A DNA stretch of 64,000 bases from Candidatus Saccharimonadota bacterium (lineage in GTDB: Bacteria; Patescibacteriota; Saccharimonadia; Saccharimonadales; OFTM59). This document shows, piece by piece, positions 3-23,378 of this stretch. The position numbers and the translations under genes were made by a program. The first letter of the stretch is position 1. Every line of letters starts with the position of its first letter. The notes under the pieces were generated by a model that saw nothing but the letters and a program-made list of their open reading frames with translations, ran no database searches and was not told the origin of the DNA. The DNA lies in NCBI GenBank assembly GCA_029260875.1, contig JAJDCL010000011.1:62401-126400 (forward strand), given 5' to 3'.

Positions 3-338
3 CTGGAACATTACGAGCAACTTATAAAGGTCGCAAACCATAACATTCAAGCTAATACTAAGGAGTTAGAGCGTCTTAAAGTCAGCTTGCCAACCGAGCA
101 AGAGTTCTACGAACTTACTAATTCGTATCTGTCAGACCTACTAAACACGACTGATTTAATGGAACAGGACGCAATATGCAACGAGCTAGTGTTGAACCTA
201 CGAGCGAGCAACGATTCCGTATCTGTTATAAAACTAAATCCACCATACAATTTGCTGGTGGATTTAGCTGAAATATCTACTGGTCGGGGTGAAAGGACTC
301 GAACCTTCGACCTCCGCGTCCCAAACGCGGCGCGCTAG
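3..338 (+). CDS. 3'-terminal part of an ORF that enters from the left edge of the window; product unknown
   Basis: The frame starting at nt 3 is open to the stop at 336-338. The ORF track only shows the Met-initiated 87..338 fragment. The tail overlaps the tRNA-Pro on the opposite strand, so the true stop or extent is uncertain. Confidence 0.25.
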   Translation: MEHYEQLIKVANHNIQANTKELERLKVSLPTEQEFYELTNSYLSDLLNTTDLMEQDAICNELVLNLRASNDSVSVIKLNPPYNLLVDLAEISTGRGERTRTFDLRVPNAAR

Positions 339-357
339 CCAACTGCGCCACACCCCG
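281..357 (-). tRNA. tRNA-Pro (anticodon TGG)
   Basis: The reverse complement reads CGGGGTG-TG-GCGC-AGTTGGCTA-GCGC-G-CCGCG-TTTGGGA-CGCGG-AGGTC-GAAGG-TTCGAGT-CCTTT-CACCCCG-A-CCA. This is a full cloverleaf with a 7 bp acceptor stem, GTTCGAGT T-loop, anticodon loop TTTGGGA and an encoded CCA. Confidence 0.9.
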
Positions 358-416: not shown

Positions 417-1454
417 TTACGGAATCCAGCGCTGGTTAAGCCCACCATGGCAATCCCAGACAATAATTTGCGTTCCATTAGCCGTCCCTGGGCCAGCAGC
501 GTCAAGACAACGGCCACTAGCGTGTGAAGCTAAAAGCGTACCAGTACTACCATTGCTGCCTCCCCATTTCTGATTTGCCCCACCGTGGCAATCATAAATC
601 TCAACTGGCGACATATTACGCCCGCCAAATGCGGCGTCTACGTCTAAACACTTACCGCTATGAACGGATCGTAGTGTGCCATCGCTGGCTATCCATTGCT
701 GATTTGTTCCGCCGTGGCAATCCCATAAGATGACCTGGGTGCCGTTTGCGGTGCCCCAGCCCGAAACGTCAAGACAACGATTGCCCGCACCAGCTGTTCT
801 TATACGAAACCCCTGGGAAGATGAAGCGCTACTACCTGGGTTACTCGCCCCGTTGTTGCCATTATTTCCTGTGCCGTTGGCCCCGTTAGCTCCACTACAA
901 CCGCTGCCAGTGCAGCTGCCACTTCCACCTGCCCCACCAGCCCCACCGTTGCTAGCCTGTTGCCCCGCTTGGCCAGCACTACCACCAGGGTTGCTTGTTC
1001 CGCCAGTAGAATTATTACCGGTACTGCCTGTATTATTACTAGAAGATGCTTCGGACGCTTTTAGTGCTTTCAGTGCCACCTTGTGGCGATCTTTCATGGC
1101 GTCTTCTTCGGCCTCGTTGTTGTCTTTTAGCAATTTGAGCTCATCTTCACAAACATCCTCTTGCTTGCCTGACATAGCGTCACATTGGTCGTCCTTGAGG
1201 TCTTCAACTGCTTTATGTTTATCTTTGAGCGCCCTTAGCTCAAGCTTTTGAGCAGCTTTTAGACTGCTTACGCCCGGACTCTGAGCTAAAGAGGTTACGA
1301 TGAATAGGGCTGAGGCAACACTAAACGCAATGACAAATAGCCATTTCTGCTTGCGTCGCTGATTTGTAGCAATTTTCTTAGTGCGTAAAGAACCTGAGCG
1401 AGTGTTTGATCTGGTGTTTCGTTTTGCAGATGTTTTTTTAGCAGTTTTTGCCAT
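417..1454 (-). CDS. N-anchored surface protein with a basic tail, TM helix, cysteine-containing coiled coil, Gly/Ser/Asn-rich spacer and a C-terminal ricin-B (beta-trefoil, QxW) lectin domain
   Basis: The N-terminus is MAKTAKKTSAKRNTRSNTRS...KQKWLFVIAFSVASALFIV (basic tail plus one TM). The C-terminus has three repeats with a CxD...G..QxW pattern (TNQQWIASDGTL, ANQKWGG, LNQRWIP), typical of ricin-B lectins. Confidence 0.7.
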   Translation of the reverse strand: MAKTAKKTSAKRNTRSNTRSGSLRTKKIATNQRRKQKWLFVIAFSVASALFIVTSLAQSPGVSSLKAAQKLELRALKDKHKAVEDLKDDQCDAMSGKQEDVCEDELKLLKDNNEAEEDAMKDRHKVALKALKASEASSSNNTGSTGNNSTGGTSNPGGSAGQAGQQASNGGAGGAGGSGSCTGSGCSGANGANGTGNNGNNGASNPGSSASSSQGFRIRTAGAGNRCLDVSGWGTANGTQVILWDCHGGTNQQWIASDGTLRSVHSGKCLDVDAAFGGRNMSPVEIYDCHGGANQKWGGSNGSTGTLLASHASGRCLDAAGPGTANGTQIIVWDCHGGLNQRWIP

Positions 1455-1564
1455 AAGAGCACTTCCTTAGGTAATTGTTAATACTTATGGGGTAATAATA
1501 CCATAACAACACTTATGCCTATAGCCCAATCACAATAATTACTAGATAGTAACAAGGGTGTCTC

Positions 1565-2623
1565 CTAGTAACCAGTAGCTCTGAGCGCTAAAATTTGTAG
1601 GTCCCGCGCTTCATCTGCAAGTTGGCAAACTGTATCTGACCCACGGCTCACATGAACGCCTGTAGCCTGTTCAAACATAATCATACGATCAGCTTCATTA
1701 GGGTTGCCGCTGTCAAAGGCTGCCATTAGTGGCGCAACAACCACACCTTTAGGGCCAGCAATAAATTTGCCACTTTGATACGTGCCGCACACTTCAGCCT
1801 GAGCCGTGGGGATCTTAGCCAAAGCGCTTGGTTGGTTAGTATCAAAAAGGCTCAGGCCACCCCCCATCCACTCACCGTACACAGGGTTGCCGTCAGAACC
1901 GTTGCCCATAAATATATTATCTCCAGGCGACGGGGAATTAGAGGCTACAAAAACGGATTTGCTTTTTATAAACTCAGTATCTGATCCCTCTACTAGACTC
2001 AGCACGGCTAGGTCTGTATCTTCATTTTGACGTATGGACACAGCAATTTTGTTAATCATGATTGCGCGTGTACCAGGAGCTGACACTGCATATTCAAATT
2101 TGTCTGGTAGGTCTTGGGCAATGTCGGCTACATCATTATTGCCAGCTTGTCTTAAACGGTCACGTATAGGCTGTGTTACTCGATTAACTCCTGTTTGCTT
2201 ATCCGTATACGGTTCAGAATCAAATGTATGAGCTGAGGTACCAATAACATACATGTCACCAACCTTATCGTCACTAACTCGTAAGGCTGCACCCTTACCG
2301 ATGTTCTGCCAAACCTTTGCCCCTTTTGACCGAGCCAGCACATCCACTGTAGCACTGGTTAAGTTGTCTCTAATCTCTTGAGAGACCTCGACCGCTTCAG
2401 AAGCAGATTCATGCATATTCTCATGAATAGTCTCTTGCCGTGCTGGTACATCCGCCACAACACTAGGCTTTAAAGCAAAAGCCAAGACTCCTACAGCCGC
2501 CAGAGCAAGCACGTTACGACTAACCCTACTTGTTAAACGTCTGTACTCGGGCCTTTCTATTGAGTGCCTAGGTTTATGTTTTTTATCTTGGTTTTCATCG
2601 GAAATACCGATTCTTCCATCCAT
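1565..2623 (-). CDS. N-anchored hypothetical exported protein, possibly a degenerate trypsin-like fold
   Basis: The N-terminus has a basic tail and a TM (NVLALAAVGVLAFAL). GTSAHTF, DLAVLSL and GNGSDGNPVY loosely resemble the His, Asp and GDSGGP segments of chymotrypsin-family proteases, but with a non-canonical Ser region. Confidence 0.35.
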   Translation of the reverse strand: MDGRIGISDENQDKKHKPRHSIERPEYRRLTSRVSRNVLALAAVGVLAFALKPSVVADVPARQETIHENMHESASEAVEVSQEIRDNLTSATVDVLARSKGAKVWQNIGKGAALRVSDDKVGDMYVIGTSAHTFDSEPYTDKQTGVNRVTQPIRDRLRQAGNNDVADIAQDLPDKFEYAVSAPGTRAIMINKIAVSIRQNEDTDLAVLSLVEGSDTEFIKSKSVFVASNSPSPGDNIFMGNGSDGNPVYGEWMGGGLSLFDTNQPSALAKIPTAQAEVCGTYQSGKFIAGPKGVVVAPLMAAFDSGNPNEADRMIMFEQATGVHVSRGSDTVCQLADEARDLQILALRATGY

Positions 2624-2678
2624 ATAGATATATTAGCATAAGCTTTACTAAAAGTCAAGATTAGAATATGTAGTTGGT

Positions 2679-4412
2679 TTACCATGTGCCCCAGCGCTGG
2701 TTGCTGGCACCTTTGAAGCAGTCCCAGATCTGTAAGTCTGTCCCGTTTGCAGTGTCATTATCCTTTACATCCAGGCATTTACCTGTAGCGCTTGAACGGA
2801 TAGTGCCATCACTATTCCATTGCCAGCGTTGGTGAGAACCACCATTACACGTGTAGATTTGCACATCTGAGCCGTTCCTGGTTTTGCCCCCTTCCACTTC
2901 AAGACATAGTCCACTAGCAGCAAGTCGGATCGTGCCATCAGTTGCCAAGCCCCACTTTTGATTGGAGTTACCTGTGCAGTCCCAGATCTGAGTATCTTTA
3001 CCTCTAGTTGTTCCGTCGGCGTCCATACAGCGACCACTGGCGTGACTTCTTATTACATATTGTGCAACTGCGGGAGGTTTATCGGTAGACGAAGAGGCCT
3101 TGGTTGTCGTAGTTTTTCCGTCAGGAGTAGTTGTGGTGCAAGTGCCATTCTTGCAAGATGTTTTGGTAGAGCCACTGTAGCTGGTGCCTTGGGACTGGCC
3201 CCCTATAGAAACCCCGCCCTGTGAACCCTTAGAGCCTTGTGAGCCACTCGTGCCAGATGTGCCTGAAGCACCCTGTGAGCCAGGAGCCCCAGGTGAACCG
3301 GGCGAGCCTTGAGTAGCTTTACCGGGGTTGCTAGCACCAGGCTGGCCAGGATTGCTCGCGCCAGGCTGACCGGCCTGACAGCCACCAACACAATTACTAG
3401 ATCCAGACTGACCGGGAAGTCCAGGTTGAGGAGCAGGTATCGGACGGCCAGCACCGATTATATCTTCCAGGGCACCGCCACCGCCAGCTTCCTCTAGGTC
3501 TACAATCTTATTGAACTCTGCCCACGTTGCGGCGCCCACTTTACCGTCACAGGTCCACCATGTTGTGGGCGCTCCCAATACGCATTTAGACCCGGGAACG
3601 CTGCGGTTATACTGCATAAATCGCACAAGATCGGCAGTCCGGCCATCATATATGCCCGTTTGAGGGACATTTTCAAGACCCATAACATTCTTTAAGAAGC
3701 CTTGTAGCACCTTGACGCACGGGTGGCTTGATCTATGATCAAGCGTCACTCTGCTGCATGTAGTCATGTTCCAGCTAGTTGGAGCGCTACTTGAGAGGGT
3801 CTGTGAGGGAGCACCAGAACCACTGCCCCCGACCGGTGTACAGGATGAATAGGAGCGTCCGGGATTTATGGGTGCACCGTTTTTTCGTATCTCAAAATGT
3901 AAATGGGCAGGCCCAGCTCCAGTTTCACCAGAATATGCAATTAGTTCCCCTTCGGAAACAGACCCAGTTTTTGCAATGCTACTTAGGTGCGCAAAACGAA
4001 ATGTATAGTTTCCAGATGTCAGGTCTGCCGATATACCATAACCTCCGTCCGGGCCCCTGCTAACAGTACCACTCCTGGGGGCGAAAATAGGCGTGCCGAC
4101 TGTAACGCCCGCACTGTTCGCGCCAAAATCAACACCTGCATGTTTACGACCATTGGGTCGGCCAGCTCCAAAACCGCCACCGTTATAATCTGTATTATTG
4201 CTATGTGCGGGCTTACCTTTTAACGGACATGTCATTGCAACTGTTTCTGCACGGCTAACATAAACCGTGGCAACACCAATAACAGCAAACAAGGTTATAT
4301 AAGCCAGCTTACGGATTCCTAAGGGCAATCCTTTCAGCATCAATAGACCCATAATTGATTGTCTGCTAGTTGAACGACTAATGGTTGTTTTGCGCTTGAT
4401 TTTGGGAGACAT
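2679..4412 (-). CDS. N-anchored M23/LytM-family metallo-endopeptidase fused to a collagen-like Gly/Pro/Ser spacer and a C-terminal ricin-B lectin domain
   Basis: The M23 signature is HAGVDFGA...G.PI.A...G.V...............HLHFEI. The middle has GQPGASNPGQPGASNPG collagen-like repeats. The C-terminus has repeated QxW beta-trefoil motifs (NQKWGL, HQRWQW, NQRWGTW). Confidence 0.8.
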   Translation of the reverse strand: MSPKIKRKTTISRSTSRQSIMGLLMLKGLPLGIRKLAYITLFAVIGVATVYVSRAETVAMTCPLKGKPAHSNNTDYNGGGFGAGRPNGRKHAGVDFGANSAGVTVGTPIFAPRSGTVSRGPDGGYGISADLTSGNYTFRFAHLSSIAKTGSVSEGELIAYSGETGAGPAHLHFEIRKNGAPINPGRSYSSCTPVGGSGSGAPSQTLSSSAPTSWNMTTCSRVTLDHRSSHPCVKVLQGFLKNVMGLENVPQTGIYDGRTADLVRFMQYNRSVPGSKCVLGAPTTWWTCDGKVGAATWAEFNKIVDLEEAGGGGALEDIIGAGRPIPAPQPGLPGQSGSSNCVGGCQAGQPGASNPGQPGASNPGKATQGSPGSPGAPGSQGASGTSGTSGSQGSKGSQGGVSIGGQSQGTSYSGSTKTSCKNGTCTTTTPDGKTTTTKASSSTDKPPAVAQYVIRSHASGRCMDADGTTRGKDTQIWDCTGNSNQKWGLATDGTIRLAASGLCLEVEGGKTRNGSDVQIYTCNGGSHQRWQWNSDGTIRSSATGKCLDVKDNDTANGTDLQIWDCFKGASNQRWGTW

Positions 4413-4450
4413 CTGATTTATCCAGTTTATGTTAATACTTTATATATGTG

Positions 4451-5083
4451 TTATTCCGGGATGCTGACTGGAATGTCAGTAGACTGTTCGCCTGCGTCGC
4501 TTGGCACTGCATCCTCTTCGTTTGCTTCATTATTTTCTTCTGGAGCGTCGGTTGGACCCTGGTTGTCAGTATCATTCTGATTGGTTTCACTTTCAAACAC
4601 AGGAGTCTTAGGTACAGGTAAGCACGGGGCACCCCTTATGCTTCCTAGTGGTTTCCAGCAACTTTCTGAGTCTTTCCATGGTTTGCTGCCGACTTTTTGA
4701 TTATTCCAGTCTGCAATAAACTTATCGTCCTGTATATTACTTGGTGCTAGACGGGCTTCACTGAAACCTCCATAATTGTTCCAGTCTTTATCATTATAGT
4801 CATATGCTCCGCCTGGTCTTTCATAACTGTGCTCGCCCCAAACGCCGTCACCACTTTCACATGCTCTTACTCTTCCAATCCAGTAACCGGCATTCCCCCA
4901 GTAACCTGGCTTGGATGCGGCAAAGGTTGTGAAAACAAGGTAACTACCAAGCATTGCGAAACCAAGTACAAAGAATAATGTTAACTGCTGTTGACGCAAT
5001 TTCTTACCTGTTAGCCAGTTTTTTACAGCACCTTTTTGACTATTTGTATTACGCATCTGGCGAGATTTTTGTGTCTTTTTCAT
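4451..5083 (-). CDS. N-anchored protein with an Rpf/transglycosylase-like (CESG) motif
   Basis: The internal Met start MKKTQKSRQ at 5083 is preceded by aggaa and avoids overlap with the upstream gene. The protein has a basic tail plus TM. RACESGDGVWGEHSYERPGGAYDYNDKDWNNYGG resembles the CESGGNW...YGG core of resuscitation-promoting-factor lysozyme-like domains. Confidence 0.4.
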   Translation of the reverse strand: MKKTQKSRQMRNTNSQKGAVKNWLTGKKLRQQQLTLFFVLGFAMLGSYLVFTTFAASKPGYWGNAGYWIGRVRACESGDGVWGEHSYERPGGAYDYNDKDWNNYGGFSEARLAPSNIQDDKFIADWNNQKVGSKPWKDSESCWKPLGSIRGAPCLPVPKTPVFESETNQNDTDNQGPTDAPEENNEANEEDAVPSDAGEQSTDIPVSIPE

Positions 5084-5096
5084 AAATGTTCCTGTT

Positions 5097-5744
5097 CTAG
5101 GTATCTCTCTCGTAGATACAGGTTTTAAGAAGCTCGCTACTGTTGTTAATGTCGAAGTGCTCACCGTAAGTTTCTCCGAAATCTTCATCATCCATGACGG
5201 CGGGATCACGCGTAATCGGAGTAGTAGAAGCTGGTTGAGCAATTTCAGAATCCTGATCGTTATTGCTGGCGCCTGTATTATCTGGTGATAATGCAGTTTT
5301 GTTAGCTACAGCTTGCCGATCACCTTCTGGAAGACTGGCTATGAATTGCTCTTCTGCGCTTCCAAAAATTGTTGCGTCCGGTAACGACTTACGAGCATCT
5401 GAATCTGGAACGGGCAAAAGCACTGGTTGCACCCATTCAGGGCTGCTTTTTCCCCTGCCTACAATAAAATTTAGGCGGTTGAATGTATCGCTGGCCCTTA
5501 AGCCAAAACGCTCACGAAGGCTTTCTCCCCTTGAATCAAGCGCCGAGCGACTGTCCGAGTTGGCGCCATAGTTGCTGGGAGCAAAGAATGTCATGACCAT
5601 ATAAATCCCTACGAGGCCCACAACAACCACCAACACGGAAGATAGTTGATATTTGCGGGAATGCCTAAGACGTCTGATGAGGTTTTCAGAAACGCTATAC
5701 TGTTGTTTTGACATCTTTTTCCTGGTAGTTTTTTTCATATTCAC
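5097..5744 (-). CDS. N-anchored hypothetical protein (basic tail plus TM, acidic C-terminus)
   Basis: The N-terminus is MNMKKTTRKKMSKQQ...LSSVLVVVVGLVGIYMVMTFF. It has the same anchoring architecture as its neighbours. Confidence 0.5.
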   Translation of the reverse strand: MNMKKTTRKKMSKQQYSVSENLIRRLRHSRKYQLSSVLVVVVGLVGIYMVMTFFAPSNYGANSDSRSALDSRGESLRERFGLRASDTFNRLNFIVGRGKSSPEWVQPVLLPVPDSDARKSLPDATIFGSAEEQFIASLPEGDRQAVANKTALSPDNTGASNNDQDSEIAQPASTTPITRDPAVMDDEDFGETYGEHFDINNSSELLKTCIYERDT

Positions 5745-5834
5745 AAACTGTTCCTGTGTCAGCTTGTTATTTTGGCCTGGTTTCAGTTATAGGCGCTTAT
5801 GCTTCGGGTGTCAAGACCCAGAAGATATCAGACA

Positions 5835-6302
5835 TCAACGACTCACTGAGCCACTTGGCGCGCTTGGGGCGCTTGGGGCACTAGATTGGCCTGTAGTACC
5901 GGGAGAGCTTGGAGCCCCGGGAGAGCCCGGTGTCCCTGGCGAACTAGTACCCGGGGTGCCGCTACCAGGCGTACCGGGGGTGCCCGTGCCATTGCTACCA
6001 GAGGTGCCGTTACAACCGCTGCCCGTACAGCTACCACTACCACCCGCACCGCCTGAACCGCCGTTAGTGCCTGGTTGCCCAGGGGCACCATTACTACCGC
6101 CACTAGTAGGGGCAGGTGGGCACAAACTGGCTGCCAGTACGCTAACCACAAAATACAAACCGATTAATGCAAAAGCTGTTACAAAAAGAGCCTTTTTGGG
6201 CGATTTTTTAAGACTTGCAGTAAAACGCGACAGATTCTTGCTTGACCCTGCGGTGGTTTTACGACGATTTGACGTGGTCTTCTCTATGCTTTTTTTAGCC
6301 AT
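5835..6302 (-). CDS. N-anchored Gly/Ser/Thr/Pro-rich collagen-like low-complexity surface protein
   Basis: MAKKSIEKTTSNRRKTTAGSSKNLSRF...ALFVTAFALIGLYFVV, followed by GAPGQPGTNGGSGGAGGSGSCTGSGC and an SSAPSAPSAPS tail. It shares the GGAGGSGSCTGSGC block with 417..1454. Confidence 0.55.
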   Translation of the reverse strand: MAKKSIEKTTSNRRKTTAGSSKNLSRFTASLKKSPKKALFVTAFALIGLYFVVSVLAASLCPPAPTSGGSNGAPGQPGTNGGSGGAGGSGSCTGSGCNGTSGSNGTGTPGTPGSGTPGTSSPGTPGSPGAPSSPGTTGQSSAPSAPSAPSGSVSR

Positions 6303-6303
6303 T

Positions 6304-7017
6304 TTATAATCCTGCCCAGCCCGACACCCTAGTGTTTATTGTCTGAATAACAGCCATAATGCCGTTGGTTCGTGGGCATAGAGCATTACCGGAAAAACCG
6401 CTATCGCCACTAACACCACCCGTACCTGACTGACCGCTAGCACCACTTGTGCCACCATTACTTGAGCCCGGGTTACTAGCGCCTGTATTACCGTTAGTCC
6501 CTGTGCCACTGGCGCCGGGGCTACTACTGCAGTTGGCGCCTGAACATGTTCCACTGCTACTTGTACCGTTTGCGCCACTGTTTGATTGACTAGACTGGCC
6601 TGTGCCTGATGAGCCGGCTGAGCCGCTTGTACCGCTAGTGCTAGTGCCAGCATTACCACTACCTGCTTGTCCGTCGGTTCCTGTTCCTGGTTGACCAGGT
6701 TGCCCTGTGCTTGTACCCGTTCCGTCCTGACCATCCTGCCCGTCCTTTACGAGTTGGGTCTGACCAGTGGTTTTATTAATGCCAGCCAAGTTACTGAAAA
6801 AGCCACCAATACGCTCGCGGACGCTCAGACTTTGGTTGCCTTCCGAGCCAGAGGTTAGCGAGCTAACTTCGTTGGCCGATTGATAAGCAGCGACAGACGA
6901 GATGATCAAGTAAATGCCAAGTGCGGCAACAGCAAACATAATGAACGTCGCCTTATTGCTGTTAGAACCTCGACGGTTGACCGAAAGTTTAGGAGAATTC
7001 TTTGATGTTTTTTTCAT
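6304..7017 (-). CDS. N-anchored Gly/Ser/Thr-rich low-complexity surface protein
   Basis: MKKTSKNSPKLSVNRRGSNSNKATFIMFAVAALGIYLIISS, then DGQDGQDGTGTSTGQPGQPGTGTDGQAGSG collagen-like repeats. Confidence 0.55.
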   Translation of the reverse strand: MKKTSKNSPKLSVNRRGSNSNKATFIMFAVAALGIYLIISSVAAYQSANEVSSLTSGSEGNQSLSVRERIGGFFSNLAGINKTTGQTQLVKDGQDGQDGTGTSTGQPGQPGTGTDGQAGSGNAGTSTSGTSGSAGSSGTGQSSQSNSGANGTSSSGTCSGANCSSSPGASGTGTNGNTGASNPGSSNGGTSGASGQSGTGGVSGDSGFSGNALCPRTNGIMAVIQTINTRVSGWAGL

Positions 7018-7134
7018 GTATGACAGAACTATTGATCCCTAAGATTTGTGAGTTTTAATATCACTTGCATTAACTTATATGCGCTTATGTTTATGATGTC
7101 AACGCGATTTGTACTGGACTAATGATCTAAAACC

Positions 7135-7710
7135 TTAACGACAAGAGTTACTACTACCGCCACTGGCGCCGTTACTGCCACTTGCGCCATTGCCACTACT
7201 ACTCGCACCGCCCGCGCCGTTGGTGCCATTACCGCCATTGCCACTACTACCCGCGCTGCCATTAGAGCTGCCGGTTCCGGGTTGACCCGGGGAGCCGTTT
7301 GTAGCTGCAAACGTGCTAGCGCCACACACACCGCTATTTTGCTTGTTTTGCTGCTTAAAGGCATCTTTTGTTCGGTCGTATTCAGCATCGTTTCTGTCTT
7401 TTAATGCATCGGCTTCTGATTTGCAAAGCTTTTTTCGCGTCCTGTCATCTATAGTCTTGCATTGGGCTTTCTTTGCGTCTTCTGCTGCTTCATGACGATC
7501 TTCCATACGTTGAAGCTCGGCCTTTTGGGCACTTGTTAAAGAGGCTGCTTCTGAAGTCATAACCAAAATACTACCAAGCACAGCAAAAAGCAGTACCAAA
7601 ATTAACATGCGCTGCTTGCTGGATAAGGCGCGGATTCTATCCACTAGCCCTTTAGGTTTTTTATCTGATACTCTGTTTTTCCGTGCACTAGCAGATTTTG
7701 ATTTCGCCAT
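7135..7710 (-). CDS. N-anchored coiled-coil and Gly/Ser/Asn-rich surface protein, paralog of 417..1454 lacking the lectin
   Basis: The start MAKSKSASARKN at 7710 follows ttaaggaaaattacgta. The protein has a TM (MLILVLLFAVLGSILVM), a Cys-pair coiled coil (AQKAELQRMEDRHEAAEDAKKAQCKTIDDRTRKKLCKSEADALKDRNDAEYDRTKD) and a G/S/N tail. Confidence 0.55.
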   Translation of the reverse strand: MAKSKSASARKNRVSDKKPKGLVDRIRALSSKQRMLILVLLFAVLGSILVMTSEAASLTSAQKAELQRMEDRHEAAEDAKKAQCKTIDDRTRKKLCKSEADALKDRNDAEYDRTKDAFKQQNKQNSGVCGASTFAATNGSPGQPGTGSSNGSAGSSGNGGNGTNGAGGASSSGNGASGSNGASGGSSNSCR

Positions 7711-7831
7711 TACGTAATTTTCCTTAATTTTTGTTTGGTTCACTTATCGTGTAGACATAAGCTTATTCCGAGTGCACCTACCGTGTCAACCCAATGGCTT
7801 TCATTTTATAACCAGACTAAGTAGATTACTG

Positions 7832-8311
7832 CTAAATTGACTTACAAGTTTTAGTGCCATTTTTTGTCGTGCAAACTGTCCCTGTGGAGGGGGCGCTAGG
7901 GGCTGAGGGGGCGCTGGGGGCGCTGGATTGACCAGGCGCACCAGGAGCTGAATTGCTGCCGTTGCTGCCGTTACTACCAGGGGCCGTTTTCACATCTTCT
8001 CCTCGGCCGTCTGTGCCTGGCTGACCCGTTGAGTCTTTACCTGACGTACCGCTGCAATTATTGCTGCTGCTTACAACGCAAGTATTGTCCGTCCCTGTGG
8101 CACCATCCGCGCCTTTACCGTTTAGCCCTTCAGGTGGGGGGCATAGTGCAAGAGCGCCAATCACTAGTAACGTACCGGCCGCTGCAAAACCCAGAATGAA
8201 TAATGATTTTTTAGGTGAGCGCCTAGCCCATAATCCTACACGCTGCAAACGACTGGTAGGTTTAGTTGTTTTAGGTTTCTTGTAGCTTGTTTTTGTTGGT
8301 CTTTTTGCCAT
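7832..8311 (-). CDS. N-anchored Gly/Ser/Thr-rich surface protein
   Basis: MAKRPTKTSYKKPKTTKPTSRLQRVGLWARRSPKKSLFILGFAAAGTLLVIGALALCPPP. It shares the C-terminal SSAPSAPSAPSAPS block with 5835..6302. Confidence 0.5.
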   Translation of the reverse strand: MAKRPTKTSYKKPKTTKPTSRLQRVGLWARRSPKKSLFILGFAAAGTLLVIGALALCPPPEGLNGKGADGATGTDNTCVVSSSNNCSGTSGKDSTGQPGTDGRGEDVKTAPGSNGSNGSNSAPGAPGQSSAPSAPSAPSAPSTGTVCTTKNGTKTCKSI

Positions 8312-8313
8312 GA

Positions 8314-9543
8314 TTATCTACCTATAAAACCCATTAATCTTGTATACATAAATTCACCCAGTGCCGTAACCCCGGTTGTTTTAGGACACAGAGCTTTTTT
8401 TGCCTTACTATTGCTGTTACTCCTGGACCCCCCGCTTAACGTACTCGAACTAATAAGGCTGCGGGGAGGCCCACCCGAATCATACATCGGCTTATTATTA
8501 ACTAAGGGTCTGCCGCCTTTGCAGTCAGTGTTTAAACAGTCATTATAAAGTTGAAAAATTGTTTTTCCAGTTATACTTTTCAGAAGCTCGTCAGAATATG
8601 TGTCATTTCTGAGGGCAGTGTGTAGTTTCTTGACAATATTTTTATCGTGTTTTGTGAGATATTTTAGAAAGGCCGCCCCACAATCGTAACCAGAGCTATA
8701 GTCTACATCAAAGCAAGAGCTAGTACGATCTACACCCAATACTTGTGGCACATAATCCGCCATTCCTTCAACTAGCCACTTTGGATATTGAGGTGTTCCG
8801 TACGATTTATAGCTCTGCACCATGTGTGTTATTTCATGACTCAATAGACGCGTATTCGAGCTATCACTAAATGTGCGCACCGTGTCAATGTCAAGATAGG
8901 CCGCTGCTCGATCCCAGTAGAACACGCAGCCTATCGCCCCCTCGCAAAGTTTTTCGCCTGTTTTAAAATTTGGAGGCAGATAGCTAAAGCTGTAGTCATC
9001 AGCGAGTTTGCCTAGGATAATAATGTATGGTGATCGATAAATAGAAGAGCTGAGCTGTTGTTCTACTCTCGGAAATATATTCTTGCAGTTTGCAAGAAGC
9101 TTCTCCGCTTTAATCTTCATGCTAAGATCTTGGCTATAATCAACCCAGCACATTCCGTTATCAATGACTCCTGGTTTACCCGGCATAACAGGGTCATCTA
9201 CCACAACAGTGCCCGGTGTTTGTTTTGAGGCTGGGCTGGCATTGCCTGGAGCGCCACCTCCTTTATTTGAGCCACTGACGGTGAGCGTAGAATTGTTCTT
9301 GCTTGCCTCAGAAGTCTTCTTTTGCCAAGGCAAGGTTACCTTTTTGCCAAAAAACGTAAACCCGTATTGATTTGCGCCAGCAGTGCTAGACCACAAGGAA
9401 GAGACAATCATATAGCCACCTAAAAACATAAAAGCGAGAGCCACAAAAACAACACTACGCTGCCTAAAGCTAGTCCTTAGATTTCTAAGTTTCTGGGATT
9501 GTGAATAGCTGAATGGTTGGTTGGCGAATCTTTTGTTGGCCAT
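8314..9543 (-). CDS. N-anchored putative zinc metallopeptidase of the basic-secretory-protein (BSP, PF04450-like) type
   Basis: HEITHMVQ (HExxH) followed by WLVEGMADYV, then GYDCGAAFLKYL and LLKSITGKTIFQLYNDC match the BSP-family pattern HE.THV.Q...EG.ADYV...GY...A.FL.Y. The N-terminus has a basic tail plus TM. The start at 9543 is preceded by aaaaagggtcaaa; the alternative start is 9573. Confidence 0.55.
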   Translation of the reverse strand: MANKRFANQPFSYSQSQKLRNLRTSFRQRSVVFVALAFMFLGGYMIVSSLWSSTAGANQYGFTFFGKKVTLPWQKKTSEASKNNSTLTVSGSNKGGGAPGNASPASKQTPGTVVVDDPVMPGKPGVIDNGMCWVDYSQDLSMKIKAEKLLANCKNIFPRVEQQLSSSIYRSPYIIILGKLADDYSFSYLPPNFKTGEKLCEGAIGCVFYWDRAAAYLDIDTVRTFSDSSNTRLLSHEITHMVQSYKSYGTPQYPKWLVEGMADYVPQVLGVDRTSSCFDVDYSSGYDCGAAFLKYLTKHDKNIVKKLHTALRNDTYSDELLKSITGKTIFQLYNDCLNTDCKGGRPLVNNKPMYDSGGPPRSLISSSTLSGGSRSNSNSKAKKALCPKTTGVTALGEFMYTRLMGFIGR

Positions 9544-9618
9544 TTTGACCCTTTTTCTGTTTGTATTTATCACGCAGTGAGATAGTACCTCGTACGATAT
9601 ATGGCTATATTAAACGAG

Positions 9619-10437
9619 TCAACCCTGATTTATTAATACCTCTGGGATAATTCGGTTGATGCTCTGGATTGAAATTGCACTGCGAGAATTACTGGATGTG
9701 ATGATTGTCGCGTTGAATTGCAAGGGGCCGCCTGTTTCTAGTTCGTTTCGGCTTGGCTGGCTGTTTAGCCACCGTTTGGTTGTGATACTCAACTTAACGC
9801 CAAGGCTGGAGTGCAGGGTGCCACACATGCCTACGTCTGTAATGTGGGCGGTGCCCCTTGGCAAAATCATGGCATCGGCCGTTGGCACGTGCCAATGATC
9901 ACCTATAACGGCTGTCACCCTGCCGTCCAGGTAGTAGCCGATCATACGCTTTTCACTACTGAAATCGCCGTGAAAATTCACAATTGTTGCAGAACGTTCA
10001 TGATTTTTATTATCTACTAAAATTTGATCAATGACTTTCAGCGGGTTATCCATCGGATCATCTGCTTTTTTGCCAACAATACTGCCCCTTAAGCTAATCA
10101 CTAGTACGCTACCTGTAGCGGTGTCAACATACTTACACCCCAGCCCTGGTGTGCCTACTGGGTAATTGGCCGGGCGGATTACAGGCTGCTTGGGATCGTT
10201 AAGTGCAGAGTGAATTTCTGGTAAAAACGTAGTCCAGTCCCCTCCGCTACAAAAATCAATACCCATATCTTTCAGCCGCTGAAAGTCAGCTAGCGAAAGA
10301 CCCTTGCCACCCGTAGTGTTCTCTGCCTGTGCAATCACAAGATCAACGCTGTATTGTTTTTTAATTTCGGGCAAAACTCGCTTAACAACCTTTATGCCTG
10401 GTTCGCCCATTATGTCCCCGATATAGAGAATATTCAT
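9619..10437 (-). CDS. ymdB: YmdB-family metallophosphoesterase (2',3'-cyclic-nucleotide phosphodiesterase-like)
   Basis: The N-terminus MNILYIGDIMGEPG...VIAQAENTTGGKG and GDHWHVPT match the YmdB (TIGR00282) pattern. It lies directly downstream of rny, as in the Bacillus rny-ymdB operon. Confidence 0.7.
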   Translation of the reverse strand: MNILYIGDIMGEPGIKVVKRVLPEIKKQYSVDLVIAQAENTTGGKGLSLADFQRLKDMGIDFCSGGDWTTFLPEIHSALNDPKQPVIRPANYPVGTPGLGCKYVDTATGSVLVISLRGSIVGKKADDPMDNPLKVIDQILVDNKNHERSATIVNFHGDFSSEKRMIGYYLDGRVTAVIGDHWHVPTADAMILPRGTAHITDVGMCGTLHSSLGVKLSITTKRWLNSQPSRNELETGGPLQFNATIITSSNSRSAISIQSINRIIPEVLINQG

Positions 10438-10671: not shown

Positions 10672-12186
10672 CTACTTGGCAAATTCTATGGCGCGGGTTT
10701 CGCGGATTACATTTACCTTAATAGTGCCTGGATACTGCATAGTAGATTCGATCTTGGTAGCTACATCGCGAGCCAGCTTGATGGCGCCGAGGTCATCAAT
10801 ATCTGTTGGTTTTACGAAGATACGAACCTCACGGCCAGCACTAATAGCATATGCCTTTTCGATACCATTAAAACCAAGCGCAACGTTTTCAAGATCTTTC
10901 ATGCGCTCGGCAAAGTTCTCGGCAGAAATATTGCGCGCGCCAGGACGAGCAGCACTCATAGCGTCTACCACACGAACAATGTGTGCCTCTGTAGTAGTTG
11001 CATCTACATCATCGTGGTGAGCTTCAACCGCGTGACAGATATCTTCGGGCACGCCGTACTTACGAAGAGTGTCAGCGCCAATATGATGATGCTTGCCCTC
11101 AACTTTATGTGTTAGGGCCTTGCCTATGTCATGCACTAATGTAGCGTACTTAACCGTCTTGACGTTAGCACCTAGCTCCTCAGCGATGATCCCCGCCATA
11201 TGGGCCATTTCTGTACTGTGCTTGAGCACGTTTTGGCCGTATGATGTGCGGAATTTAAGCTCACCAAGTAGCTGTAAAACTTCTTTGGGAATGCCGATAA
11301 TACCGACTTCGCGGGCAGCGTCTTCACCGGCTCGGACAACTTCTTTTTGGACTACGGCCTGGGCTTTTTCTACAACCTCTTCAATACGGCCGGGGTGAAC
11401 ACGGCCGTCTTTTAGGAGCATCTCAAGAGCTTGGCGGGCTACTTCGCGTCTCACTGGGTCAAACGAACTCAGGATAATCATGCCTGGGGTGTCGTCTACC
11501 ATAATGTCCACGCCGGTGGCGCGCTGTAAGGCCTGAATATTACGCCCCTCTTTGCCGATAATACGGCCTTTCATTTCTTCATCTTCCAGCTTTACAGCCG
11601 TGACCGTCCGTTCTGCCGTAACCTCGCTGGCCATGCGCTCCATTGCCTCAACTATAATAACCGCCCCTTTTTCTTCGGCGGTCTCCCGAGCTTCGTTCTC
11701 GAGCTTTGATATAAGCCCAAGCAAGTCTTGGCGTATGTCTCGCTCTGTCATTTGCATAAGCTTGCCGGCGGCATCTTCTTTGGTAAGCTTAGCGATTTTT
11801 TCTAACTTTTCTTGTTGTTTGACACGAATAGAGCGGATTTCGTCTTTGAGCTGTTCAGCCTCGGTTTCACTGGTACGTAATTTTTCTGCGCGTCTGTCTA
11901 TGTCGTCTAGTTTTTTATCCAAGGATACTTCGCGGTCCAGTAAGCGCTGCTCGATTTCTTTTATTTCTTTGCGACGCGTGGCTTCTTCTTGGCGCGCCTT
12001 TTCTGATACTTTGGTTGCTTCTTCTCGAGCTTCATCTAGGGCTTTCTCAGCCTCTTTTTTGGCCTTTTTTAATTCCTTCTCGGCCGCCTCTTCTGCGGAC
12101 CCTAGTTTGGTTTTGGTCATGACGTTGTTTGCGACAAAGCCCGCACCAACGCCGGCCAATGCCAGCACAATGGTAATTGGATCCAT
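10672..12186 (-). CDS. rny: Ribonuclease Y (N-terminal TM, coiled coil, KH and HD domains)
   Basis: The start MDPITIVLALAGVGAGF at 12186 follows gaaaggaacaaac. The protein has KH-like GKEGRNIQALQRATGVD and HD-domain VLKHSTEMAHMAG...LVHDIGKA. Confidence 0.9.
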   Translation of the reverse strand: MDPITIVLALAGVGAGFVANNVMTKTKLGSAEEAAEKELKKAKKEAEKALDEAREEATKVSEKARQEEATRRKEIKEIEQRLLDREVSLDKKLDDIDRRAEKLRTSETEAEQLKDEIRSIRVKQQEKLEKIAKLTKEDAAGKLMQMTERDIRQDLLGLISKLENEARETAEEKGAVIIVEAMERMASEVTAERTVTAVKLEDEEMKGRIIGKEGRNIQALQRATGVDIMVDDTPGMIILSSFDPVRREVARQALEMLLKDGRVHPGRIEEVVEKAQAVVQKEVVRAGEDAAREVGIIGIPKEVLQLLGELKFRTSYGQNVLKHSTEMAHMAGIIAEELGANVKTVKYATLVHDIGKALTHKVEGKHHHIGADTLRKYGVPEDICHAVEAHHDDVDATTTEAHIVRVVDAMSAARPGARNISAENFAERMKDLENVALGFNGIEKAYAISAGREVRIFVKPTDIDDLGAIKLARDVATKIESTMQYPGTIKVNVIRETRAIEFAK

Positions 12187-12386
12187 GTTTGTTCCTTTCA
12201 GCCTACGGTCAGCCGACATCACTATCACTTCTTTAGTCGCACTTTACCGTAGAAAATCAAAAATTAAATTGTAAGAATTGTGGCACTTCAGGTGCCGACG
12301 GATTTTGCTCCCAAAAAGCTGCATAATCCTACCCTTAACTATACGCGGAATTAGTCGCTCAGGTCAATCCATGCAAGAATATATTC

Positions 12387-13355
12387 CTAGTTGTCAGCAG
12401 GCATAGATGAATCTCTTTGAATGGCGTAGACTACCAGGCGCTGATTATAGGTGTTAGATGTAGCATCATACGAGCCAGCCTCAGTGATCAAATTAAGTCC
12501 CGGCAACCCCGGTACGGCTGTTGCTAGCATGGGCTCCAGCGGGTCAACATCCCTAAAGGCTTGGAGTTTTGCTACATAGTATGTGAAGATTTTACCATCG
12601 CCCGCCTCTAGCCTAAGTTCGTCCCCTGGCTTTAAACTTGTTATATCATGAAAAATACCGGGCTTGCTTGGGCCAGACATGTGGCCAGTCAAAACCACCG
12701 CACCAACCTCTCCAGGCTTGACACTACTTTCATACCAGCCGACATCATATATATTCGAAGGCAATCTGATTTCTGTTTCCGTACCAACGCCCACTCTGCG
12801 GACACGTGCGGAAAGCCCCATGTCATCTATGTGCATAATTCGCGGCAAATTACTGGCAACCTGATAACTCTGTATATTTGTGGGTCGACGTTCACTGATC
12901 TCGTTACTAGTATCTAGCATAGCTTCTACACTAACCCTGCTATGAGACCTATCGGCTTCTGCTTGCTTGCTGGAATGTGCACTGCTTAGTAATATGACTG
13001 AAACAAACAAAACCACAGCCAAACAGATCACTGGTAGGTACATCTTTAACTTGTTTAGACGGGGAAATGTTGGGCCCGGGAACCGCCTGAACTTAATATC
13101 AAATATGTTATCGGAACGCTTTAGCTGAACAGGCAGGCCTGAGAAGCGAGATAGTTTAGGAGGCGTACCGGACAATGATTCAAGGTATTCGCCCTGGTTT
13201 GCCGGCACGTATCTTGACGCACGCTCTCCTATACCGTCAATACTACGAGGCTGAACACGCTGAACAGAACGCCGGTAATAGGGCGAGGGTGAGCTGGTGC
13301 GCGGTTCTGGCGTGCCAACAAGTACTCTGTGCTGACGTGGCCGGTTTGATGCCAT
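12387..13355 (-). CDS. Sortase-fold membrane protein lacking the catalytic cysteine (TLxTC Cys replaced by Glu)
   Basis: The N-terminus has a long basic region plus a TM (MYLPVICLAVVLFVSVILL). The domain aligns with SrtA: IHIDDMGLSARVRRVG, VVLTGHMSGP (His), GLNLITEAGS in place of LTLITC, and NQRLVVYA (Arg). The DNA reads ATC ACT GAG GCT at the expected Cys codon. Confidence 0.55.
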   Translation of the reverse strand: MASNRPRQHRVLVGTPEPRTSSPSPYYRRSVQRVQPRSIDGIGERASRYVPANQGEYLESLSGTPPKLSRFSGLPVQLKRSDNIFDIKFRRFPGPTFPRLNKLKMYLPVICLAVVLFVSVILLSSAHSSKQAEADRSHSRVSVEAMLDTSNEISERRPTNIQSYQVASNLPRIMHIDDMGLSARVRRVGVGTETEIRLPSNIYDVGWYESSVKPGEVGAVVLTGHMSGPSKPGIFHDITSLKPGDELRLEAGDGKIFTYYVAKLQAFRDVDPLEPMLATAVPGLPGLNLITEAGSYDATSNTYNQRLVVYAIQRDSSMPADN

Positions 13356-15901: not shown

Positions 15902-16933
15902 CTAAAGATCCGCTACCTTGCTTGCTGAGTCCATTACTTTCTTAGCAAATTCGTCCATAAGTTTAGGATTTTTTTGTAAATACTCCTTGGCTGCCTCGCG
16001 GCCTTGGCCGATCTTCTCGCCTTTGTAGCTGAACCAAGCACCAGACTTTTCTACGATGTCATGCTTAGCCGCAAGGTCCAATATGTCACCAGCTTTACTT
16101 ATCCCTTCGTTATACATGATGTCGAATTCTGCTTCGCGGAATGGCGGGGCAATCTTATTTTTAACCACCTTTACGCGAGTTCTGTTGCCTATCACTTCGT
16201 CTCCCGCCTTGATCTGACCAATTCGGCGAATATCCATACGCAGGCTGGCGTAGAACTTCAGGGCGTTTCCACCTGTCGTGGTCTCGGGGTTACCAAACAT
16301 AACGCCAATCTTCATACGAATCTGATTAATAAATATAACGGTGGTGTTGCTTCTCGATATAACACCGGTCAGCTTTCGTAAAGCCTGGCTCATTAATCGT
16401 GCCTGAAGCCCCATATGGCTATCGCCCATCTCACCTTCAATCTCAGCCCTGGGCACTAAGGCGGCAACAGAGTCCACCACAATAAGGTCAACCGCGCTGC
16501 TGCGGACAAGTGTTTCGGTAATTTCTAGCGCTTGCTCGCCGTTATCCGGCTGACTGAGCAAAAGGTTGTCCACATCTACGCCAATACGTTTTGCATATGA
16601 GGGGTCTAGGGCGTGTTCTGCATCAATGAACGCCGCTGTACCGCCACGCTTTTGGACTTCTGCAATTGCATGCAATGTCAGCGTAGTCTTGCCCGAGCTC
16701 TCAGGACCGTAAACCTCAATAATGCGCCCTTTTGGGATACCGCCACCAAGGGCCAGGTCTAGCGATACACTGCCAGTAGGCGTGCATTCAACCGCACCTT
16801 GTTGACCTGTGCCAAGTTTCATTATTGAGCCTTTGCCGAACTGTTTTTCAATCTGTTCTAAAGCTAGGTTTAACGCCTTGCTTTTACCATCATTTACACC
16901 CACCGTGCTGTCACCACTGTCTTTTGCAGCCAT
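15902..16933 (-). CDS. recA: Recombinase RecA
   Basis: GPESSGKTT Walker [32 protein letters not shown], and the GNALKFYAS loop. Confidence 0.97.
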
Positions 16934-17046
16934 ATTACCCTCCTCAAGTTGTAGAGTTTAGTATAGCTTGTCGTTAGGGGCCATGACAATGGAGTATCTT
17001 GGTATAGTCTTTATGCTTGTAAGTAGTTATAATCGGTGTAAGTATT

Positions 17047-18801: not shown

Positions 18802-18802
18802 T

Positions 18803-20026
18803 ATGCCAACATTTAAATACACAGCAATTGACAAAACAGGTAAGCGTGTAACAGGCACGACCGAAGCAGCAAGCGCTGCTGTTGCAACCGCCAATCTTAA
18901 GTTGCGTGAACTGCGCCCTATTGAGGTTGCGCTAGCAAAAAATGGAAGCCTGGTGAGCAAACTGCCCTTTGGGCCGGGCAAGAAAAAAGTTAAGTCTAAA
19001 GACCTGGTGGTTTTCACCAGACAGCTTGCGACTATGATAAATGCCGGCGTGCCACTTGTAAGGTCCTTAGCAACTTTGCAGGTTCAAACCGAAAACCCAA
19101 ACTTTAAACAGCATATAGTTGAGGTCACTAAGGAAGTAGAGGGTGGTGCAACTTTTGCAGATGCACTTGAAAGGCATTCGGTAGTATTTTCGCCGATTTA
19201 TATAAATATGGTCAGGGCCGGTGAAGCGGGCGGTATTTTAGACGCAATCCTGAAGAAGCTCGCCACTCAGCAAGAAAAAGACGAAAAGATCAAAGGTAAG
19301 TTTAAAAGCGCCATGACATATCCGATCATCCTGCTGACCATTACTACGCTGGTTTTTTTGGCATTGATGGTCTTTGTTATGCCAAAGATAGGTAAAATCA
19401 TTCAGGATCTGGCCGGGCCTAGTGCCGAGTTACCCCCCCTCACAATAGTTATGCTTGGCATCAGCAACTTCCTGGTTGCTAGGTGGTATGTACTCCTTGG
19501 CATTGGCGTAATTGCGGGCGCAGTACTATCACGATACATAAGCACGCCAGGGGGGCGACGAAAGAAGGATAAGATTCTTTTGAAATTGCCTGTTATCAAA
19601 ACTGTTATCAAAAAGGTCGCTATAGCCCGTTTTGCCCGTATTTTTGCATCGCTTATGAGTGCTGGAGTTACGGTTATTGATTCGATTGAGGTAACTGCTA
19701 AAGCTATTGGCAACAGTGTGATTGAAGAAGAACTAATGGCAGCCTCTAAAACAGTCGCAAATGGCCAGCAACTATCCGTACCAATTAGTGCAAGCAAGGT
19801 CTTCCCCCCTATTGTGGGGCAGATGCTATCTGTAGGCGAAGAAACCGGTAAGACAGATGAGATCCTGGTGAAAGTTGCTGATTTTTACGAGGATGAAGTG
19901 GATGTAGTTGTAGATAGTCTTAGCTCTATACTGGAGCCTATTATGATCGTAGTAATGGGTACATTGGTCGGTCTTATAGCTGCCAGCGTGATCGGGCCAA
20001 TCAGCAATCTTTCCAATCAGATATAG
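18803..20026 (+). CDS. pilC: Type IV pilus platform protein PilC (GspF family)
   Basis: Two GspF repeats, the N-terminus MPTFKYTAIDKTGK, and TM segments. It is adjacent to pilB. Confidence 0.9.
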   Translation: MPTFKYTAIDKTGKRVTGTTEAASAAVATANLKLRELRPIEVALAKNGSLVSKLPFGPGKKKVKSKDLVVFTRQLATMINAGVPLVRSLATLQVQTENPNFKQHIVEVTKEVEGGATFADALERHSVVFSPIYINMVRAGEAGGILDAILKKLATQQEKDEKIKGKFKSAMTYPIILLTITTLVFLALMVFVMPKIGKIIQDLAGPSAELPPLTIVMLGISNFLVARWYVLLGIGVIAGAVLSRYISTPGGRRKKDKILLKLPVIKTVIKKVAIARFARIFASLMSAGVTVIDSIEVTAKAIGNSVIEEELMAASKTVANGQQLSVPISASKVFPPIVGQMLSVGEETGKTDEILVKVADFYEDEVDVVVDSLSSILEPIMIVVMGTLVGLIAASVIGPISNLSNQI

Positions 20027-20192
20027 CACACCACCCGAAGACCTTACACATATAGACCTAATAAATAAACCACACCTAATGCACAGGGAAAAGTATTGCG
20101 CGATATGAAACATGTGATAGTGTATAACCATAAGCTGTAAAAAGCTTGAAATACTAATTACAATTTACAAATAAGAAGGGTGGGCATTATAA

Positions 20193-20681: not shown

Positions 20682-20705
20682 TTTGAGCTTTTAAAAAGCT
20701 TTTCA

Positions 20706-23367: not shown

Positions 23368-23378
23368 CTACTCCGGTA

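Follow-up and report, generated by a model that had tools for sequence, protein, structure and literature searches.

Lysostaphin-type lysins join an M23 catalytic domain to a C-terminal wall-targeting domain. A similar layout is present in one member of the ten-gene array (g1 to g10) described here, which occupies positions 417-9573 on the minus strand of a 64,000-nucleotide stretch of contig JAJDCL010000011.1 (positions 62,401 to 126,400; GenBank assembly GCA_029260875.1, Candidatus Saccharimonadota bacterium). We refer to this whole stretch as the window. Our analysis suggests, with moderate confidence, that the array is a clade-specific island between ymdB and a tRNA-Pro gene and that it encodes a Sec-exported toolkit for binding and cutting cell walls, probably at the interface with a host. 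Similar to lysostaphin, LytM and zoocin A, the g3 protein places a carbohydrate-binding module C-terminal to its M23 domain, whose HxxxD and HxH motifs are intact. However, targeting in the lysostaphin type is by SH3b, while g3 has a ricin-B domain and, in addition, a PG_binding_1-like segment, a (Gly-X-Y)11 stalk and a basic tail with a transmembrane segment (TM); the activity of g3 is predicted.

Other members of the array recall other systems. The g4 family resembles Rpf (PF06737) and the RpfB-RipA pair in its CESG...W..GG...Q motif, in having RpfC as its only PDB match, in a profile link to a PF06737-positive neighbour gene and in its position beside, or fused to, an endopeptidase. It differs in its organism, a Saccharibacterium, and in that g4 fails the Pfam model, one homologue is without the Glu, and the partner is an M23 enzyme here but NlpC/P60 there. 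With Scl1/Scl2, BclA and the collectins, g3 shares a Gly-rich stalk and a C-terminal lectin head, with 11 invariant in-phase Gly residues; in contrast to Scl and BclA, the Gly-X-Y runs of the array are far shorter, LPXTG is absent and trimerisation is putative. Tape-measure and endolysin M23 domains of Staphylococcus and Arthrobacter phages are 32-47% identical to the g3 M23 domain over 110-165 residues, but the similarity covers M23 only and the array has no phage context. Within the same phylum, glycan-binding envelope proteins and lectin-like minor pilins of cultivated Saccharibacteria have been proposed to serve in host recognition (PMC10633639, PMC11623550). These likewise are exported proteins with carbohydrate-binding domains and a proposed action on glycans of the host wall, and a pilus cluster is also present near the array. 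Those proteins carry VCBS, dockerin, FN3 and pilin heads, whereas the array members are non-pilins with ricin-B, M23, Rpf-like and BSP heads and are known from their genes alone. None of these systems shares the organisation of the array as a whole. In their domain biology the proteins are ordinary; it is the arrangement, the lineage and the possible host-interface role that are noteworthy. Among open-access texts, we found no paper on the island or on ricin-B or Rpf-like proteins in Saccharibacteria.

The first-pass annotation of this DNA had described ten consecutive co-oriented genes, and this was borne out by the open reading frames (ORFs) and by an independent gene caller, which recovered all ten from a Logan contig that matches the window at 100% identity over 10.2 kb. 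The only same-species contig found is 100% identical to the window. For g5, g8 and g10 the gene caller placed the start inside the longest ORF (Table 1), and the likely start of g4 is at 5083, not at the longest-ORF start of 5242. An exact look-up of the g10 protein read from its GTG start returned no record, the gene caller having begun it at an ATG. Gaps within the array measure 1-121 bp, and a consensus scan found no convincing minus-strand terminator between its genes, so that the array may be co-transcribed. Its GC content is that of its flanks.

YmdB places the window in the Saccharibacteria/Saccharimonadales, with a metagenome-assembled genome (MAG) at 78% identity as the nearest genome. 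The nearest relatives are all Saccharibacteria/Saccharimonadales MAGs, which fits the earlier guess of an episymbiont. Four related assemblies (L002, L082, L083 and L084) also have the array, its genes in the same order but with gain and loss of members. The window and L001 run from g10 to g1, L082 and L083 from g8 to g1, and L084 from g5 to g1 with the addition of a canonical PF06737 gene; L002 has no g10 and possesses an extra g4 paralogue, a fusion of the Rpf-like and M23 domains and an apparently frameshifted g2. The g10 gene is also missing from L082 and L083, and among the related arrays only that of the window has it. Variation in copy number and in spacer length, for which a cross-genome check had been proposed, was seen in both cases: g10 is present or absent, L002 has the additional g4 paralogue, and the g7 orthologues range from 237 to 353 amino acids, their N- and C-terminal pieces being kept while spacer length alone varies.

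The position of the array is equally defined. It follows ymdB, with gene order kept, in L002, L082 and L083, and it ends at tRNA-Pro in L001, L002 and L084. It is missing from the ymdB junction in approximately 60 other Saccharimonadales species. A tRNA scan of approximately 50 species located tRNA-Pro(TGG) 30-130 bp after ymdB in most of them, and in the remaining species 2-6 kb of unrelated genes separate the two. These 2-6 kb intervals often contain a minus-strand gene of about 520-590 amino acids (loci L003-L081). The more distant L009 (10834-14120) has a two-gene version consisting of an anchored trypsin-like protease and an anchored CAP-like/ricin-B protein, the CAP-like call having been made only by visual inspection. 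A comparison of the window with L002 gave an identity of 94% for Rny and 79% for YmdB; the values are 51-58% for g4, g5, g7 and g8, 84-93% for the ricin domains and about 30% for the M23 region. Each of the four member proteins present in the protein collection forms a cluster of its own. Scans of Joint Genome Institute metagenomes with the g3 and g4 family alignments returned no relatives, and neither did a scan of IMG/VR.

All ten proteins share the design of their N-termini. Each begins with a tail of 24-45 residues containing 7-14 Lys/Arg, followed by one hydrophobic segment (19-23 residues in nine of the proteins) with a Kyte-Doolittle mean (19 residues) of 1.7-2.6. Lys/Arg number 0-2 in the 15 residues that come next, and there is no strong second hydrophobic segment. 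A rule built on this front end flags 10/10 array proteins versus about 5 of the window's 62 other ORFs (Fisher p = 5.6e-9). A single TM with positive charge on its N-terminal side is what defines a type II signal-anchor, and the N-in, C-out topology that had been proposed fits the positive-inside rule in all ten. Other parts of the proposed common front end were confirmed in part. The basic tail and TM are found throughout, while the low-complexity spacer that was said to follow the TM is absent from g2, g4 and g5. Sequence homology of the front end could be demonstrated for g4 to g9, each of which (g4, g5, g6, g7, g8 and g9) is still detected by a hidden Markov model (HMM) of tail and TM when its own family is left out (E 1.6e-4 to 3.4e-10), and for g1, which matches g8 by BLAST (35% identity over 128 residues, in the N-terminal half of g1); g2, g3 and g10 have only the architecture in common with the others. 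The tail and TM HMM has almost no other match in 1.4 Mb of Saccharimonadales sequence.

Motifs in the cytoplasmic tails are conserved, most clearly AKQQNSxSENxIxRLRHSRK in the g5 family. Because of these motifs, and that of g5 especially, we favor the prediction that the anchors are retained. None of the ten proteins has a C-terminal LPXTG-type motif with a hydrophobic segment and basic tail. We rejected the idea of sortase substrates on the absence of these sorting signals and on the conservation of the upstream sortase in array-free relatives. Lipoproteins were likewise rejected, since the ASLC of g6 and LALC of g9 have Leu before the Cys and no lipobox was apparent by inspection.

The best-defined heads are those of g1 and g3. 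Matches to the ricin families (PF00652 / PF14200) exceed the gathering score in both g1 (RicinB_lectin_2, 6.3e-36 and 123 bits; Ricin_B_lectin, 9.8e-29 and 100 bits) and g3 (Ricin_B_lectin, 1.3e-31 and 110 bits; RicinB_lectin_2, 3e-27 and 96 bits). Each domain also has the threefold QxW (residues 252, 295 and 341 of g1; 485, 528 and 572 of g3) that marks the family, and these motifs are conserved in eight ricin domains. The ricin domain of g1 is 93% identical in L002. Peptidase_M23 (PF01551), matched over model positions 2-96 of 96, gives g3 a score of 61.0 bits (cut-off 28.7; E 1.3e-16), and its HAGVD (91-95) and HLH (170-172) are invariant in five orthologues. The PG_binding_1 match (E 0.0066) is sub-threshold in the window protein and clearer in orthologues. 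Both g1, annotated as a ricin-B lectin with a Cys-pair coiled coil (here read as a helical hairpin), and g3, annotated as an M23 domain fused to ricin-B, were therefore correctly described, the Cys pair of g1 being conserved and the motifs of g3 intact. On this basis, the M23 domain of g3 is a predicted peptidoglycan endopeptidase and the ricin domains of g1 and g3 are predicted carbohydrate binders.

The description of g4 as Rpf-like stands on indirect grounds. Searched directly, g4 has no match to PF06737 at E <= 0.1 and so falls outside formal membership of the family, and a single-sequence search of the PDB gave no match. When a profile of the six-member g4 family was used, only RpfC was recovered among 177,635 PDB sequences (E 0.078 and 0.32), the match spanning the CESG-GxW / W..GG region. 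Comparison with M. luteus Rpf by hhalign gave E 7.6e-4 and a probability of 25%, values that are approximate. An HMM of the mature g4 domain found a single non-family match among 5,028 ORFs, a gene of the L084 array (E 5.9e-4) that itself scores 2.7e-18 on PF06737; L084_5, which is 51% identical to g4, matches PF06737 at E 0.005. Glu occupies the catalytic position in g4 and 6/7 family members, one homologue being without it. In relatives the Rpf-like domain is fused to M23 (a 750-aa protein of L002) or to PG_binding_1 and ricin-B (L084). The AlphaFold2 model of g4 was poor, with a predicted local distance difference test (pLDDT) score of 52.8 from a 6-sequence alignment, and Foldseek returned no matches for it. 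These comparisons support an Rpf-like g4 that lies below formal family membership.

Two further members are candidate proteases. In g2, no Pfam match and no PDB sequence match were found. T129, H132 and D204 are invariant in five positional orthologues, all of which also have an SG motif, although not in one aligned column, and one orthologue matches Trypsin_2 at E 0.002. The AlphaFold2 model of g2 is of low confidence (pLDDT 44.3, 4 sequences); Foldseek searches with it returned almost only HtrA/DegS/tPA folds (best E 6.7e-4, TM-score about 0.2). These lines converge, if weakly, on a probable trypsin fold, as had been suggested, while the accompanying suggestion that the fold is degenerate found no sign in its favor. 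Searches for homologues with g2 alone or with a five-sequence profile returned only g2 and the L002 protein, and at whole-length coverage there are three 50%-identity clusters, its own included, among 1.84 billion representatives. In L002, the nearest genome, the positional orthologue of g2 (16903-18047) is split between frames: one ORF holds the N-terminal signal part, and a second, overlapping ORF holds the protease part with TAFHC...GSSGA. This indicates either a frameshift (pseudogene) or an assembly error. The zinc peptidase of g10 was annotated as BSP-type and this agrees with Pfam (PF04450, 56.7 bits against 23.8, E 3.8e-15), where the match is confined to the C-terminal half of the model (positions 104-206 of 207). 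HEITH is at residues 246-250 and EGMA at 269-272; a PDB sequence search of g10 gave chance-level matches only.

The remaining five members, g5 to g9, have no globular head, and each family keeps a short Cys-containing end motif. In g5, a conserved ectodomain (about 60 residues) is accompanied by an acidic tail and by CxYExEA at the C-terminus, and each of the four related arrays has an orthologue. Searches of Pfam, NCBIfam, PHROG and PADLOC gave no match for g5, and neither did the PDB, which was also searched with a g5 profile. The g6 and g9 proteins are paralogous (43% identity), and g9 is 78% identical in L002. The Cys pair of the hairpin that g8 shares with g1 is conserved in eight sequences. 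The g7 protein ends in the tail ALCPRTNGIMAVIQTINTRVSGWAGL (window 6307-6384). A C-terminal tail of about 25 residues is common to g7, three g7 orthologues and g10 (8317-8394), with the consensus [LFV]CPK[TN]xG[VIL]xA[VIL]..T.NTR[VL].G[WF].G[LIR], and the spacers that precede it are otherwise unalignable. This tail (LCPKTxG...) is not LPXTG and matched no NCBIfam C-terminal sorting domain; its mean hydropathy, about 0.8 by hand estimate, is too low for a TM and it has no basic end. Right after the TM, g6, g9 and their orthologues have LCPP/LCPT, which resembles the LCP(K/R)T at the C-termini of g7 and g10. That these could be paired disulfide sites between family members is pure speculation.

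Gly/Ser-rich spacers are present in g1, g3 and g6 to g9, short in g10 and absent from g2, g4 and g5. In g3 the spacer does not follow the TM but separates the PG-binding-like segment from the ricin domain. A collagen-like spacer had been attributed to all ten proteins, and this holds for three: in-phase Gly-X-Y runs exceed those of shuffled sequences only in g3 (11 triplets), g6 (8 triplets, p = 0.001) and g7 (8 triplets), with at most four triplets elsewhere. The eleven in-phase Gly residues of g3 do not vary among five orthologues, whose identity to the window protein is 47-64%. Collagen-type helices are recognised by just this pattern of constant Gly and changing X and Y, and a short trimerising stalk ahead of the g3 lectin is therefore plausible. 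Long uninterrupted Gly-X-Y of the Scl/BclA type was not found, and NCBIfam Scl models gave 25-30 bits against cut-offs of 325-400. The window g3 spacer is without a 31-residue in-frame stretch (ASIGQGTGG...GGSG) kept in all four orthologues. CxxxxC loops recur within the spacers.

Peptide blocks are shared between spacers, GGAGGSGSCTGSGC by g1 and g6 and SSAPSAPSAPS by g6 and g9. The peptide blocks are present as annotated, but the DNA under them is not near-identical (35/42 and 23/33 bases match, respectively), and the array contains no long DNA repeats. Recent duplication or gene conversion was rejected on these two grounds, the shared-block DNA being only 70-83% identical, and the shared motifs have therefore been kept by selection and not by recent copying. 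The paralogous expansion that had been read from the blocks is confirmed for g6/g9, g1/g8 and the pair of ricin domains; it is old, the DNA having diverged.

Upstream of the island, the order sortase (PF04203, 2e-14), rny, ymdB recurs in about 20 other Saccharimonadales loci without the array. About 7 kb from the island is a type IV pilus cluster (Table 1), and several ORFs after its PilM have short N-terminal hydrophobic segments and are possible minor pilins. A 448-aa protein further along has no Pfam match and is not matched by the HMM of the array N-terminal module. On the opposite strand of the island, long ORFs at 730-1251 and 5653-6309 are antisense to Gly-rich coding sequence and one at 87-338 crosses tRNA-Pro; these are most likely shadow ORFs and not genes.

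Table 1. Features of the island and its surroundings (window coordinates; aa, amino acids; domain functions are predictions)
Feature	Window position	Strand	Length or residues	Description
tRNA-Pro (TGG)	281..357	-		ARAGORN; downstream island boundary
g1	417..1454	-	345 aa	tail + TM, Cys-pair hairpin, spacer, ricin-B lectin
g1 basic tail and TM			1-57	
g1 helical hairpin	1080-1277		60-125	conserved Cys pair
g1 spacer			126-215	Gly/Ser/Asn, CxxxxC loop
g1 ricin-B lectin	426-809		216-343	
g2	1565..2623	-	352 aa	tail + hydrophobic segment, probable trypsin-fold serine protease
g2 protease region	1604-2356		~90-340	candidate triad His132, Asp204, Ser284
g3	2679..4412	-	577 aa	tail + TM, M23, PG_binding_1-like, spacer, ricin-B
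g3 M23 endopeptidase	3861-4145		90-184	
g3 PG_binding_1-like segment	3603-3722		231-270	
g3 Gly-rich spacer	3054-3464		317-453	conserved (Gly-X-Y)11 run, CxxxC/CxxxxC loops
g3 ricin-B lectin	2691-3059		452-574	
g4	4451..5083	-	210 aa	tail + TM, divergent Rpf-like domain, acidic C-terminal tail
g4 Rpf-like domain	4604-4909		59-160	PF06737-type, putative muralytic; CES at 75-77
g5	5097..5744	-	215 aa	tail, TM, ectodomain; gene caller 205 aa from 5714
g6	5835..6302	-	155 aa	tail, TM, LCPP, Gly/Ser/Pro spacer with GSGSCTGSGC loop; no globular head
g7	6304..7017	-	237 aa	tail, TM, ERxGGFFxxLAGIN, Gly/Ser spacer, conserved C-terminal tail
g8	7135..7743	-	202 aa	g1-like hairpin, Gly/Ser/Asn spacer, NSCR end; no head; gene caller 191 aa from 7710
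g9	7832..8311	-	159 aa	tail, TM, LCPP, spacer, C-terminal CxTxNGxKTC loop
g10	8314..9573	-	419 aa	tail, TM, short spacer, BSP peptidase; gene caller 409 aa from 9543
g10 zinc peptidase	8539-8850		242-345	BSP-type HExxH; HEITH at 8824-8838
ymdB-like phosphoesterase	9619..10437	-		PF13277; upstream island boundary, synteny anchor
rny	10672-12228			precedes ymdB
Sortase gene	12387-13355	-		upstream of rny and ymdB
Type IV pilus cluster	17047-26518	+		
PilB-like ATPase	17047-18801	+		type IV pilus cluster
PilC-like platform	18803-20026	+		type IV pilus cluster
Pilin	20193-20681	+		N-methylation motif; type IV pilus cluster
PilM	20788-21849	+		type IV pilus cluster
448-aa protein	38000-39346	-	448 aa	basic tail, N-terminal TM, Pro/Ser-rich spacer, second TM, Pro-rich C-terminus

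Cultivated Saccharibacteria are tiny bacteria that live attached to other bacteria, and modular turnover is often seen in interaction genes. To our knowledge, Actinobacteria are the only hosts of the cultivated strains. Binding of TM7x depends on cell-wall polysaccharides of its host, the responsible lectins being unidentified (PMC11623550), and host glycans have been proposed as the targets of Saccharibacterial envelope proteins that carry glycan-binding domains (PMC10633639). Based on the restricted distribution of the array, the turnover of its genes and domains, the occurrence of divergent enzymes beside conserved lectins and the episymbiotic life of cultivated relatives, we infer that the toolkit acts outside the cell on a wall, most likely that of a partner and not the organism's own. 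Its members would be displayed on the surface and may co-operate. Stalks of three types (a Gly/Ser-rich spacer, a short collagen-like run and a disulfide-stapled helical hairpin) would carry the heads across the symbiont's own wall, where the lectins would bind wall glycans of the partner cell. The M23 domain may then cut peptide cross-links and the Rpf-like domain glycan strands, so that jointly they would open the peptidoglycan locally, while the proteases (g2 and g10) may trim surface proteins. The g3 protein may trimerise via its (Gly-X-Y)11 and present three lectin domains, in which case it would be akin to a collectin or to a targeted lysin of the lysostaphin type. The predicted outcome is attachment and nutrient access at the site of contact. 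A fuller version of the host-interface toolkit, in which a homologous anchor module carries interchangeable heads, g3 is a collagen-like, trimeric M23-ricin lysin in the style of a collectin, g4 an Rpf-like factor that copies an actinobacterial growth factor and g5 to g9 a surface matrix disulfide-linked via their conserved Cys motifs, with the host wall opened, or its remodelling even stimulated, where the cells attach, appears to us rather unlikely.

Several observations weigh against action of a displayed toolkit on a partner wall. The M23 domain of g3 adjoins the membrane anchor, and own-wall action would be favored if g3 stays anchored; enzymes of the M23 and Rpf-like kinds also occur as ordinary autolysins. 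Sub-threshold or indirect matches underlie the assignment of g4 as Rpf-like and of g2 as trypsin-like. Both AlphaFold2 models (g2 and g4) were of low confidence, and eleven Pro-poor Gly-X-Y triplets are short for a stable triple helix. Moreover, a small-x-Ala motif terminates most of the hydrophobic segments, so many members could conceivably be cleaved and released instead of displayed.

Some of these points bear on the possibility that the array encodes housekeeping envelope proteins. The M23 and Rpf-like enzymes would then be the organism's own autolysins for wall growth and the separation of daughter cells, the low-complexity proteins would be structural parts of the wall or surface layer and the lectins would bind its own wall polymers. 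M23, Rpf-like and PG_binding_1 are typical autolysin domains, the position of the g3 M23 domain right after its anchor would suit such a role, and rny and ymdB, immediately upstream of the array, are housekeeping genes from which no clear terminator separates it. A core division function, however, would be expected to be more widespread: about 60 other Saccharimonadales species are without the array at this locus, the protein families of the array are extremely rare, and gene content and fusions differ among close relatives. The autolysins considered are those within the 64 kb covered. We regard this explanation as unlikely, if one to be taken seriously.

A second possibility is that the N-termini are long signal peptides of the Gram-positive type that are cleaved, in which case the products would be free bacteriolysins and proteases, directed against competitors or used for scavenging amino sugars and peptides, in the manner of lysostaphin or zoocin A. 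The small-x-Ala at the end of most hydrophobic segments, the co-encoding of two proteases and the g3 layout, in which M23 precedes a C-terminal targeting domain as in lysostaphin-type lysins (in domain order only), are all consistent with release. Yet hydrophobic segments of 19-23 residues in 9/10 proteins and conserved motifs in the cytoplasmic tails, which are unusual for cleaved signal peptides, argue for anchoring, as does the Pro that follows the candidate cleavage site of g5, and five members have no enzymatic head to release. Release is quite improbable in our assessment.

Finally, a remnant of a phage or mobile element with tail-fibre-like and lysin genes, which might be suspected since the island abuts tRNA-Pro, the g3 M23 domain resembles phage tape-measure/endolysin domains and the spacers weakly match tail-fibre PHROGs, is highly improbable, because the island contains none of the genes for integrase, capsid, portal or terminase, is situated 5' of the tRNA with a GC content matching its flanks, shows phage similarity limited to the M23 domain with no IMG/VR relatives, and has export-type N-termini in all ten proteins. 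PHROG matches were confined to the M23 and ricin domains, plus the weak tail-fibre matches over stalks (g1 E 3.9e-4; g6 E 3.7e-4), and a prophage remnant was rejected from the PHROG, IMG/VR and phage M23 comparisons. PADLOC profiles of anti-phage defence had no match in the array.

How episymbiotic Patescibacteria recognise and breach the wall of their hosts is an open question, for which the published leads are type IV pili and unidentified lectins (PMC11623550) and glycan-binding proteins of the envelope (PMC10633639). The locus described here supplies testable candidates in the form of two well-conserved ricin-B lectins, a lectin-tethered M23 enzyme, an Rpf-like domain and two proteases. 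Since the lineage is uncultivated and rare, the near-term impact is limited to heterologous biochemistry. If the proteins act on their own cell's wall, the array would represent an unusual organisation of autolysins in a reduced genome. If instead they act on the wall of a host, they would provide a molecular handle on host range and nutrient access in these bacteria.

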